From Thermoanaerobaculia bacterium (GTDB lineage: Bacteria > Acidobacteriota > Thermoanaerobaculia > UBA5066): a DNA stretch of 40,129 nt. Under the pieces are notes generated by a model, which was not told the DNA's origin, did not search any database, and worked only from the letters and a program-made list of their open reading frames with translations. The DNA lies in assembly GCA_023151375.1 (NCBI GenBank), contig JAKLJB010000081.1, positions 1-40,129 on the forward strand, read 5' to 3'. Below, in pieces: positions 32,512 through 37,086 of this stretch. Numbering within the stretch: position 1 is the first letter of the stretch; the number at the start of each line of letters is the position of its first letter. The position numbers were made by a program, and so were the translations under genes.

Positions 32512-33204
32512 ATGGTCGTGCCCGCCGAAAACGCCCCGCCCCGGCACCGGCAGCTCAGGCAGTGGGTCGCGGATCACCTGCGAGCGGAGATCCTCGAAGG
32601 AAAGCGAAAGCCCGGCGACTGGCTCCGGCAGGAGCAACTCGCCCGCGAGCTGGACGTCAGCCAAACACCTGTCCGAGAAGCGCTCAAACAGCTCGTGGCG
32701 GATGGGCTCCTGGAACACGTCCCCTACCGGGGCATCCAGGTCGTCCGGTTCTCGGTCGAGGACGTCGAGGACCTCTACGAGAGTCGCTCGGTCCTGGAAG
32801 CGATGGCGGCGCGCCACGCCGCGACCGCGATCACCGCGGAGGAACTGAAGCTCCTGGCATCGCTTCACTCCCGGATGCTCGAGTGCGAGATGCCGTCCCA
32901 GCTGAAGGCCTACCGCGACCTCAACCGGCGTTTCCACGAGACCATCATCACGGCGTCGCGCCGGAGCTTCCTCACGCGCACCTTGAGCCAGCTCTGGACG
33001 GCGTTCCCGACCATGCTCTGGAGCAACGTCCCCCACATCGCCCTCAAGTCCATCCCCGAGCGGGACGAGCCGGATAACGCCGAACACGCCGAGATCGTCG
33101 CGGCCCTGCAGGCCCGCGATCCGGACCGCGCCGCGCGAGCCGCCAGAAGCCACATCGAGAGTGCGGGCCGGACCCTCCTGGCGGCGATGAAAGCCCGTCC
33201 ATGA
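32512..33204 (+). CDS. GntR-family (FadR/FCD-type) transcriptional regulator
   Basis: wHTH (LRQEQLARELDVSQTPVREALKQLVADGLLEHVPYRGIQV) plus C-terminal FCD-like helices. ATG 32512 chosen downstream of an AT-rich TATATAAG promoter-like box (32486-32497). Confidence 0.75.
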   Translation: MVVPAENAPPRHRQLRQWVADHLRAEILEGKRKPGDWLRQEQLARELDVSQTPVREALKQLVADGLLEHVPYRGIQVVRFSVEDVEDLYESRSVLEAMAARHAATAITAEELKLLASLHSRMLECEMPSQLKAYRDLNRRFHETIITASRRSFLTRTLSQLWTAFPTMLWSNVPHIALKSIPERDEPDNAEHAEIVAALQARDPDRAARAARSHIESAGRTLLAAMKARP

Positions 33205-33374
33205 ACAGCTCGCAGGGTTTCCGCCACCCGGCGGATCCGCAATGCGGCATCCCATCCCCTTCATCCGGACGGCTGACCGTCAGCGGGACCGCCGCGCGGC
33301 GGCCCGTGCCATTCCCGGTCTCTAACGGTCATCGGGCGCCACAAGCCCGTCATTCCCAGCCCCGAGGAGGAGAA

Positions 33375-36168: not shown

Positions 36169-36183
36169 TCTGCGGAGCACTTC

Positions 36184-37086
36184 GTGAAGCATCCCGTGAC
36201 CCTGCGTCCTCTTCGTCGACTGCCGCTGCTCTTCCTGGTCCTCGCTCTGGCGGCGGTGCCCGCCGGGGCCGAGCCGGCTCTCGCCGGCCGTGGGCATCTG
36301 GTCCTGATCGGCGGTGGCGAGAAGCCGGCCGACGCGATGCTGAAGTTCATCGAGCTTTCGGGCGGCAAGGACGCGCCGATCGTGATGATCCCGACCGCCT
36401 CCACCGATGCGGACGCTCCCGAGTACTACGAGAAGCTCTTCCGCGAGACCTTCGGGTGCGAAAAAGCCGTGTCGCTTCGGATCCGAAACAAGGCCGATGC
36501 CGCCAGACCGGACTATGTCGAACTCGCGGCGAGGGCCCGGGGAATCTTCTTCGGGGGAGGAGACCAGATCCGGATCACGGGGGCCCTCCTGGGGACTCCC
36601 GTGGGCGATGCCATCGCCCGCTCCTTCGCGCATGGCGCGGTCGTTGGCGGGACCTCCGCCGGAACTGCCTGTCAGAGCGAGGTCATGATCACGGGAGAAG
36701 GGGACTTCTCCGTCATCCGGACGCGAAGTGTCGAGACCTGGCAGGGACTGGGATTCCTCCCCGCCGGAGTCGTCGTCGACCAGCACTTCATCAAGCGGCA
36801 GCGCGAGAACCGCCTCCTCTCGGTCATTCTCGAGAACCCCAGCCTGCTCGGCGTCGGCGTCGACGAGGAGACCGCGATCTGGGTGCGGCCAGACGGGACG
36901 TTCCAGGTCCTGGGAAAGAGTAGTGTCATGGTCGTCGACGCCAAGGGCGCGGCTCCGAGCCGCCAGGCACGGCCCACGGGCCAGGACTCGCTCGGCGTCC
37001 ACGATCTGAAGCTGCACGTGCTCCTTCCGGGCGAACAGTTCGATCTCCTCTCACGCGCGATCCTGTCGGTGCCGCCCGGTCGCTGA
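36184..37086 (+). CDS. Secreted cyanophycinase (peptidase S51, CphB/CphE-like)
   Basis: Signal peptide (LPLLFLVLALAAVPAGA). GHLVLIGGGE, GIFFGGGDQIRIT and nucleophile motif GGTSAGTA are collinear with Synechocystis CphB. GTG 36184 with GGAG 6 nt upstream. Confidence 0.75.
   Translation: MKHPVTLRPLRRLPLLFLVLALAAVPAGAEPALAGRGHLVLIGGGEKPADAMLKFIELSGGKDAPIVMIPTASTDADAPEYYEKLFRETFGCEKAVSLRIRNKADAARPDYVELAARARGIFFGGGDQIRITGALLGTPVGDAIARSFAHGAVVGGTSAGTACQSEVMITGEGDFSVIRTRSVETWQGLGFLPAGVVVDQHFIKRQRENRLLSVILENPSLLGVGVDEETAIWVRPDGTFQVLGKSSVMVVDAKGAAPSRQARPTGQDSLGVHDLKLHVLLPGEQFDLLSRAILSVPPGR

Follow-up and report, generated by a model that had tools for sequence, protein, structure and literature searches.

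A putative cyanophycin-scavenging locus in Thermoanaerobaculia pairs a TonB-dependent transporter with an exported cyanophycinase-type enzyme

The locus described here consists of three co-directional genes at positions 32512-37086 (+ strand) of a 40,129-nt contig from a Thermoanaerobaculia bacterium (Acidobacteriota; assembly GCA_023151375.1, contig JAKLJB010000081.1); this whole stretch of DNA is referred to below as the window. The genes encode, in this order, a GntR-family regulator with an FCD effector domain, a TonB-dependent transporter (TBDT) and a peptidase of family S51, and all three are present where a first-pass annotation of the letters alone had placed them, as a putative locus for the utilization of cyanophycin or of the dipeptide beta-Asp-Arg. 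Cyanophycin is a storage polymer of aspartate and arginine that is released by lysed cells. The nearest genome record is the metagenome-assembled genome (MAG) Thermoanaerobaculia bacterium Bin_89R (JAJVIN010000021.1), whose DNA is ~99% identical over 12.6 kb, and hundreds of homologues (67-93% identity) are found in Thermoanaerobaculia. Close homologues derive for the most part from MAGs of wastewater and sludge, and cyanophycin genes are ubiquitous in this habitat (PMC10687191).

The S51 gene lies in an open reading frame spanning 36007-37086, with a GTG at 36184 as its likely start, six nt past a Shine-Dalgarno sequence (GGAG, 36174-36177), which gives a protein of 300 aa (36184-37086, +). 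Pfam assigned this protein to Peptidase_S51 (PF03575, 1.2e-21), and in the NCBIfam search it scored 186.6 bits against the cyanophycinase equivalog TIGR02069 (cutoff 126.6), the match covering profile positions 1-250 of 250. Its best solved relatives are likewise cyanophycinases, namely 7UQV (7e-41, 34% identity) and Synechocystis CphB (3EN0/7UQW; 2e-39, 35%), both aligned over the full catalytic domain and with an identical triad and pocket. The nucleophile motif GTSAG occupies residues 156-160 (nt 36649-36663), and the predicted triad Ser158 (codon 36655-36657), His201 (36784-36786) and Glu228 (36865-36867) aligns to Ser132, His174 and Glu201 of CphB. Similarly, Gln128, Asp199, Gln200, Arg205, Arg207 and Arg210 correspond to the CphB pocket residues Gln101, Asp172, Gln173, Arg178, Arg180 and Arg183 (catalytic and critical residues as listed in PMC3235067, citing Law et al. 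2009). The triad and all six pocket residues are invariant in 23 aligned Thermoanaerobaculia orthologues. Dipeptidase E (PepE) was considered as an alternative identity and rejected: the PepE model NF003642 scored 32.2 bits against a cutoff of 156, and the alpha-aspartyl dipeptidase in the PDB matched at just E = 6e-4. Judged by these profiles and residues, the protein is a cyanophycinase-type enzyme and not dipeptidase E. The grouping with PepE that the first-pass annotation had proposed to look for was not found, and its description of a signal-peptide-bearing S51 protein with a GTSAG nucleophile, collinear with CphB, is borne out by TIGR02069, the triad, the pocket and the leader described next.

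On a heuristic reading, the N-terminus of the enzyme, MKHPVTLRPLRRLPLLFLVLALAAVPAGA/EP, is built like a Sec signal peptide, with n-, h- and c-regions. The predicted signal peptide comprises aa 1-29 (cleavage at AGA/EP), with K2, R8, R11 and R12 in the n-region, LPLLFLVLALAAV as the h-region and PAGA/EP as the c-region. An equivalent hydrophobic leader is shared by most of the 23 aligned orthologues and by the majority of full-length homologues, including most of those from other phyla, and some homologues from Gemmatimonadota/Longimicrobium carry lipoboxes. The signal peptide would place the cyanophycinase at least in the periplasm, and we only infer that it may act outside the cell. Since the enzyme is exported, granules of the own cell would be out of its reach. 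This sets it apart from the intracellular cyanophycinases, which lack a signal peptide, degrade granules inside their own cell and are usually clustered with cphA (PMC10206079); no cphA gene was seen in the window or in the related loci.

An exported cyanophycinase is known from CphE of Pseudomonas anguilliseptica BI and P. alcaligenes DIP1, which serves growth on exogenous cyanophycin and shares with the window enzyme the S51 family, a Sec signal peptide, the Ser-His-Glu triad and a conserved Gln/Asp/Arg pocket (PMC3235067). CphE is, however, ~420 aa long and has Thr in place of CphB Gln173 (PMC3235067), whereas the window enzyme has 300 aa, keeps Gln200, comes from another phylum and is linked to a TBDT. 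Compared with the published description of CphE, it thus appears as a CphB-like core, as judged from its length and from the retained Gln200 (CphB Gln173), to which a signal peptide has been added, and by sequence it is not part of the ~420-aa Pseudomonas lineage. Of the CphE arrangement invoked in the first-pass annotation, the Sec signal peptide stands; the ~420-aa length and the Thr-for-Gln173 exchange are not shared, and the word 'extracellular' goes a step further than the export signal does. Among near-identical strains, the cyanophycinase is less conserved than its flanks, the effect being modest: in locus L008 (loci compared with the window are denoted by L numbers) its amino-acid identity is 97%, compared with 100% for GntR, TBDT and the Major Vault Protein (MVP)-like protein encoded downstream; in L001 the values are 92% vs 99%; and bins spanning 36250-37249 contain 32 of the 104 differences in DNA from L008.

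Upstream of the cyanophycinase gene, positions 33375-36113 (+) encode the 912-aa TBDT. Its predicted Sec-type leader, MSKKILIPICAAVFILLGLPATLWA/QG (aa 1-25, cleavage at LWA/QG), is followed by an N-terminal extension matching CarboxypepD_reg (PF13620, aa 33-113, 2e-17), which lies between the signal peptide and the plug and bears out the carboxypeptidase-regulatory-like domain of the first-pass annotation. There follow a flexible linker with a TonB-box-like ATVTVTG (aa ~117-139; a low-confidence region of the structural model, and hence a candidate only), the plug (aa ~136-241) and the beta-barrel (aa ~249-912), which ends in a C-terminal Phe. The barrel matched Pfam OMP_b-brl_4 at 2.9e-36; the match to Plug (PF07715) was weak, with 21.1 bits against a gathering score of 23.9, and many orthologues have a precomputed PF07715 match. 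As a sequence-only search of the PDB with the TBDT returned no match, its structure was predicted with AlphaFold2 from an alignment of 46 homologues (mean pLDDT 79.9, pTM 0.74). The model shows a barrel of the ~22-strand type around an N-terminal plug, and Foldseek aligned it to more than 50 solved TBDTs with probability 1.00 over 800-900 alignment columns. At the top were YddB (6ofr, 3.2e-39) and FusA (4zgv, 7.1e-39), the next match being at 2e-32 and many siderophore TBDTs following; sequence identity between the model and YddB or FusA is just 13-16%. Domains and model together make the 912-aa protein an Oar-like TBDT carrying an N-terminal extension. Membership of the SusC/RagA group was rejected, because TIGR04056 gave no match, and no SusD-like neighbour is present. 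No tonB or exbBD genes were found in the locus.

The first gene (32512-33204, +) encodes a protein of 230 aa with a winged-helix GntR domain (PF00392, 2.2e-16, aa 17-77) and an FCD domain (PF07729, 6.5e-26, aa 87-216), which by sequence is a GntR-family regulator of the FadR-like (FCD) subfamily; no NCBIfam equivalog model scored above its cutoff for this protein. An FCD-type GntR regulator ahead of both other genes had been noted in the first-pass annotation. In 28 of 50 Acidobacteriota loci, an orthologue of the regulator (57-76% identity) lies ahead of the TBDT or the S51 gene. Just upstream, an AT-rich element, GTCAAATATATAAGATAG, contains promoter-like boxes (TTGCGT at 32473-32478 and TAAGAT at 32496-32501, separated by a 17-nt spacer), and most orthologous loci have AT-rich elements similar to AATATATAATGTA or of the form GAT..TATATC..ATATC just ahead of the GntR start, with TTGAC-N17-TAnnnT boxes. 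The element at 32473-32503 (+) is a candidate promoter/operator as read from the letters, and because it ends 10 nt before the ATG, the regulator mRNA may be leaderless. A sigma-70 consensus scan of 32100-37400 called no site. In the spacer between the GntR and TBDT genes, a palindromic operator was looked for and just weak GC-rich inverted repeats were found, and a search of 31500-37500 for known RNAs and riboswitches yielded none.

Conservation of the gene arrangement was assessed in 80 species-representative loci encoding relatives of the enzyme, in which homologues of the window genes were located by tblastn and neighbouring genes were clustered. Genes were called with a codon log-odds caller that reproduces most database calls and miscalled at least one gene (in L004). 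In the 50 Acidobacteriota loci of this set (enzyme identity 49-97%; two loci without any upstream sequence), a TBDT gene is adjacent to the S51 gene in 37, within two genes of it in 40 and within five in 43, and a GntR regulator gene lies within two genes of it in 27. The outer flanks differ between loci, both upstream (SpecificRecomb, DcuC, M20, C45-type and others) and downstream (PGA_cap, M20 or an MVP-like gene), and so the GntR>TBDT>S51 trio appears to travel as a unit. Conversely, for TBDT orthologues chosen on long contigs regardless of S51, four out of four have an S51 gene within three genes. Outside the Acidobacteriota loci with this trio, other receptors take the place of the TBDT: Gemmatimonadales show the order IclR>S51>SusC/RagA>SusD, with a SusC of 791 bits on TIGR04056 and a SusD confirmed by Pfam; in Pyrinomonadaceae, S51 is followed by a 1274-aa Oar-like TBDT; and in Ignavibacteria and Bacteroidota, M20>S51>YfcC is accompanied by RpiR>TBDT two genes further. 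The link between receptor and enzyme is not a matter of chance, and the convergent recruitment of unrelated TBDTs beside S51 in other phyla is the strongest evidence for functional coupling. Thus, the receptor is not separated from the enzyme in all relatives, as the synteny search suggested in the first-pass annotation might have revealed; the pairing of the enzyme with TBDT and GntR is conserved. Both the breadth and conservation of the pairing in Acidobacteriota and the separate pairing of SusC/SusD with S51 in Gemmatimonadota appear to be new.

Within the trio, the TBDT stop (36113) and the cyanophycinase start (36184) are 70 nt apart, so that 'directly downstream', as the first-pass annotation had it, is right as to adjacency and passes over a spacer with a GC-rich, terminator-like hairpin. 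This hairpin (36129-36160, +) has a GC stem of 10 bp, an inner stem of 3 bp and GAAA as its loop, and is followed by TTTTT (36162-36166); its fold has -35.9 kcal/mol (z = -2.07), and no other strong hairpin that is close to a stop codon and has a T-run is present in the 40-kb window. Its internal loop caused a simple terminator scan of 32100-37400 to pass over it. Nearly all orthologous loci have a counterpart of this hairpin after the TBDT stop, with stems that differ in sequence yet stay complementary (GGGGCGGCC/GGCCGCCCC, GGAGCGGC/GCCGCTCC and GAGGGCCGGC/GCCGGCCCTC). The T-run ends 18 nt before the cyanophycinase start, where the Shine-Dalgarno sequence is conserved, and these 18 nt leave no room for a separate promoter past the hairpin. 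The most economical reading is that the hairpin probably acts as an attenuator or as a stabiliser of the mRNA 3' end inside one transcription unit. Conservation of a hairpin in the TBDT-cyanophycinase spacer appears to be new.

A strong terminator-like hairpin between the genes would also suit two separate transcription units, with the TBDT serving another nutrient under control of GntR. The module is in fact split in L021, L027 and L037 into adjacent GntR-headed units, GntR>S51 and GntR>TBDT>PGA_cap, which implies a duplicated regulator, and in L090 the S51 and M20 genes are divergent from GntR>TBDT. Still, even the split units lie next to each other; adjacency holds across 49-100% protein identity while the flanks change; and it arose with unrelated TBDT subfamilies in other phyla. 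That transporter and enzyme are mere neighbours is, in our view, very improbable.

In many relatives, the module includes two further genes. One encodes a transporter of the DcuC family whose nearest match is 'putative basic amino acid antiporter YfcC' (363 bits), the other an M20 hydrolase of ~400 aa that has no signal peptide and hence is presumably cytoplasmic. The acidobacterial M20 protein is nearest to carboxypeptidase G2 and the ArgE/DapE deacylases; that of Ignavibacteria is a different, PepT-like form, just 23% identical to it. Such M20 or YfcC genes lie beside those of exported cyanophycinases in several phyla, examples being found at L032 4895-6088, L026 10903-12111, L062 8916-10016 and L088 8995-10203. 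Chemically, beta-Asp-Arg is an N-acylated arginine, which makes a deacylase of the M20 type reasonable as a dipeptidase, and by sequence the M20 hydrolase and the YfcC/DcuC transporter are candidates for an undescribed cyanophycin dipeptidase and dipeptide carrier. The known dipeptidases IadA, IaaA and CphZ were not seen beside S51 genes in any of the related loci, and their replacement by M20 and YfcC partners appears to be new. A plausible full layout in relatives, pieced together from the gene content, would comprise an outer-membrane TBDT, an exported cyanophycinase, an inner-membrane carrier of the YfcC type, a cytoplasmic M20 hydrolase and a regulator of the GntR, RpiR or IclR family. 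For the bacterium of the window, the steps after cyanophycinase must be either encoded elsewhere in the genome or absent.

A gene for an exported PGA_cap protein (CapA/MslH-like, metallophosphatase fold) follows that of the cyanophycinase in 20 of the 50 Acidobacteriota loci (e.g., L004 8954-10267, L006 8947-10299 and L089 8685-10028). Past PGA_cap, often on the opposite strand, lie genes for M28/M20 peptidases, exported M14 peptidases, an enolase of the OSBS/N-succinyl-amino-acid-racemase type and DcuC.

Such neighbours (exported PGA_cap, M14, M28 and the racemase-type enolase) are suggestive of general peptide processing. Together with the identity of just 34-35% to characterised cyanophycinases and the lack of IadA, IaaA and CphZ beside S51, they raise the question of another substrate, such as a beta-aspartyl or isopeptide-containing peptide or some other poly(amino acid) from decaying biomass, cleaved by an S51 enzyme of different specificity. 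We consider this unlikely: the six pocket residues and the triad do not vary among the 23 aligned orthologues, the curated equivalog cutoff is exceeded by 60 bits, and the inner-membrane partner is nearest to a family of basic-amino-acid antiporters, as would fit an arginine-containing product.

As to the direction of transport, SusD partners are substrate-capture lids of importers. Their presence in Gemmatimonadales, together with YddB and FusA as the best structural matches of the window TBDT, argues for import. YddB of E. coli and FusA of Pectobacterium are importers that work with a dedicated periplasmic protease (PMC6793856), and the YddB/PqqL and FusA/FusC pairs resemble the locus in that a TBDT gene is paired with the gene of an exported peptidase processing an imported polypeptide (PMC6793856). 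They differ in their M16 endoprotease, in importing folded ferredoxin for iron, in responding to iron and, in the case of Fus, in a dedicated TonB homologue, whereas the window locus combines an S51 exopeptidase with a GntR regulator and a transporter bearing a CarboxypepD_reg extension, and lacks a TonB gene. That the TBDT, going by the model, resembles protease-associated import transporters in structure appears to be new.

The Oar protein of Myxococcus xanthus suggests the opposite direction. Like SusC/RagA proteins, it is a TBDT with a carboxypeptidase-regulatory-like extension, encoded with enzymes of the substrate pathway; it differs in acting in protein secretion rather than import, as, to be secreted across the outer membrane, PopC needs Oar along with ExbB/ExbD/TonB (PMC6434023). 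By analogy, the Oar-like TBDT of the window, which has the same domain class (CarboxypepD_reg extension plus barrel), would release the Sec-exported cyanophycinase over the outer membrane, and insoluble granules would be degraded outside. Coupling of the TBDT gene to that of an exported enzyme which must reach an insoluble extracellular substrate would make sense in this way, and the cyanophycinase shows no evident signal for type II or type IX secretion. However, only one case of TBDT-dependent secretion is known, the best structural matches are importers (YddB, FusA), and the Gemmatimonadales partner is a SusC/RagA protein with a SusD lid, i.e., an import architecture. Moreover, in relatives the locus goes on to encode a transporter of the inner membrane and a cytoplasmic hydrolase, a layout suited to nutrient uptake. 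Outward transport therefore seems to us quite unlikely.

Elements of the arrangement have precedents. Clusters of a cyanophycinase, an isoaspartyl dipeptidase and a transporter have already been described for scavenging (PMC10206079, PMC9974463). The 'cyanophycin utilization locus' of Ben Hania et al., as far as it is cited in PMC10206079, likewise has a cyanophycinase without cphA next to genes for uptake and dipeptide splitting; as characterised there, these clusters use IadA or IaaA and amino-acid transporters, where the present locus has a TBDT and GntR and its relatives have M20 and YfcC/DcuC. With regard to the transporter, Tang et al. 2012 (PMC3400609) reported a TBDT beside a cyanophycinase in Citromicrobium sp. 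JLT1363 and proposed cyanophycin as a TBDT substrate. This was a single alphaproteobacterial example without follow-up, compared with the dozens of Acidobacteriota species here and the other TBDT types elsewhere. The remark in the first-pass annotation that such a pairing had not been characterised thus holds for experiments, but the adjacency itself was reported from genome context in 2012.

Taken together, we consider it fairly probable that the three genes form a regulated module that scavenges cyanophycin of external origin, the TBDT taking in material derived from it and the exported enzyme making beta-Asp-Arg. What the analysis shows is which genes these are, that the catalytic and pocket residues are kept, that an export signal is present and that the genes stay linked across several phyla; substrate, direction of transport, compartment of the enzyme and regulation are inferred as follows. 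The GntR/FCD protein would control transcription from a promoter ahead of its own gene. The TBDT would carry soluble chains, short (beta-Asp-Arg)n oligomers or the beta-Asp-Arg dipeptide over the outer membrane, and, in the periplasm and/or outside the cell, the Sec-exported S51 exo-cyanophycinase would cut the polymer to beta-Asp-Arg. The ratio at which the two genes are expressed, with more receptor than enzyme, is probably set by the hairpin between them. In many relatives, the inner-membrane transporter of the YfcC/DcuC type and the cytoplasmic M20 deacylase would then take up and split the dipeptide.

This scheme allows for two orders of events. Either the enzyme is periplasmic and the TBDT imports soluble chains or oligomers for it, analogous to FusA/FusC and YddB/PqqL, or cleavage by the enzyme takes place outside and the TBDT serves to capture dilute dipeptide. 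We slightly favour the former, because of YddB and FusA as top matches and the SusD partners in Gemmatimonadota, and consider the latter less likely.

Several points weigh against the scavenging module as outlined. In its native form, cyanophycin is mostly insoluble, and the enzyme works as an exopeptidase; this is a difficulty especially for import of chains to a periplasmic enzyme, and no surface endo-acting enzyme that would make importable fragments was identified. Conversely, the dipeptide, with 289 Da, could cross porins, so that a TBDT is not obviously needed. As for the transporter, its Plug match stays below the gathering score and its TonB box is a candidate. With regard to linkage, the Acidobacteriota loci are phylogenetically related, so that 37 of 50 does not amount to 37 independent events, and in eight Acidobacteriota loci GntR directly precedes S51 with no TBDT between. 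Because the conserved terminator-like hairpin separates them, the TBDT and cyanophycinase genes form a putative operon at most. In the window, no gene for an inner-membrane transporter or a dipeptidase adjoins the trio, the next gene being the unrelated MVP-like one. The basis of the whole scheme is gene and sequence analysis plus a structural model.

A more far-reaching version would have the TBDT import soluble chains or (beta-Asp-Arg)n for digestion in the periplasm, and hence amount to protease-associated import of a non-ribosomal polyamide, in Acidobacteriota as well as in Ignavibacteriota/Bacteroidota and, in the form of a SusCD 'cyanophycin PUL', in Gemmatimonadota. The importer of the YfcC type would complete it, together with M20 as a fourth, hitherto undescribed class of dipeptidase beside IadA, IaaA and CphZ. 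We put this forward tentatively, as a possibility about which doubt outweighs confidence.

Cyanophycin is increasingly recognised as a widespread store of nitrogen, wastewater sludge included, and we know of no established route by which cyanophycin or its dipeptide passes the outer membrane in Gram-negative scavengers. If the proposed function is true, a regulated TBDT with an exported cyanophycinase would be a concrete candidate for this step, the logic of utilization loci known for glycans and ferredoxin would extend to a non-ribosomal polyamide, and abundant uncultured Thermoanaerobaculia and Gemmatimonadota would be consumers of the cyanophycin nitrogen pool. For the dipeptide steps that are missing, the M20 hydrolase and the YfcC transporter offer testable candidates. 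Overall, the finding is plausible, coherent and testable, and would come as no surprise to a specialist in TonB-dependent nutrient uptake.

Elsewhere in the window, the first-pass annotation had pointed to an arginine deiminase paired with a TonB_C lipoprotein as a possible downstream arm of the system. Both genes are present and adjacent on the minus strand: the arginine deiminase-like gene at 4747-6036 and, 2 nt downstream, the TonB_C lipoprotein gene at 3776-4744, whose product has the lipobox LSAC and SH3_3 and TonB_C domains. Arginine from beta-Asp-Arg needs some catabolic route, and the pair might on this account supply the catabolic and energising arm. The genes are, however, 27 kb away from the locus, with housekeeping genes (purB-like, ddl, serA, etfAB) in between, and in 87 related loci no arginine deiminase match was found and TonB_C gave one weak match, in L025, ~9 kb from S51. 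Moreover, the arginine deiminase-like protein stays below both NCBIfam arcA cutoffs (313 bits vs 414 and 489), and a lipobox combined with SH3_3 and TonB_C is, going by its domains, not the canonical TonB architecture. While the pair as such stands, its link to the locus does not hold up, and a shared function is highly improbable.

The other genes of the window are those of an ordinary chromosome: folD, the gene of a Ham1-type nucleotide pyrophosphatase, purB-like, ddl, serA, etfAB and imuA'-imuB-dnaE2. Just upstream of the locus lies an SOS-mutagenesis cassette (24815-31586, +) with genes for an ImuA'-like protein (24815-25549), ImuB (25633-27135) and DnaE2 (28233-31586). Between imuB and dnaE2, a direct repeat of ~450 bp occurs in two copies of 93% identity (27207-27657 and 27755-28207), each bearing a hairpin with a T-run (27524-27548 and 28073-28097). 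Two genes for putative endonucleases of the Uma2 family are located at 10399-11037 and 31599-32225. Directly 3' of the cyanophycinase gene, positions 37257-40070 (+) encode a 937-aa protein with domains of the eukaryotic Major Vault Protein (MVP_shoulder 5e-18, Vault_3 3e-9, Vault_4 2e-3). This MVP-like gene is kept, at 99-100% identity, in the closest strains only (L001 and L008), and other relatives have a PGA_cap gene in its place.

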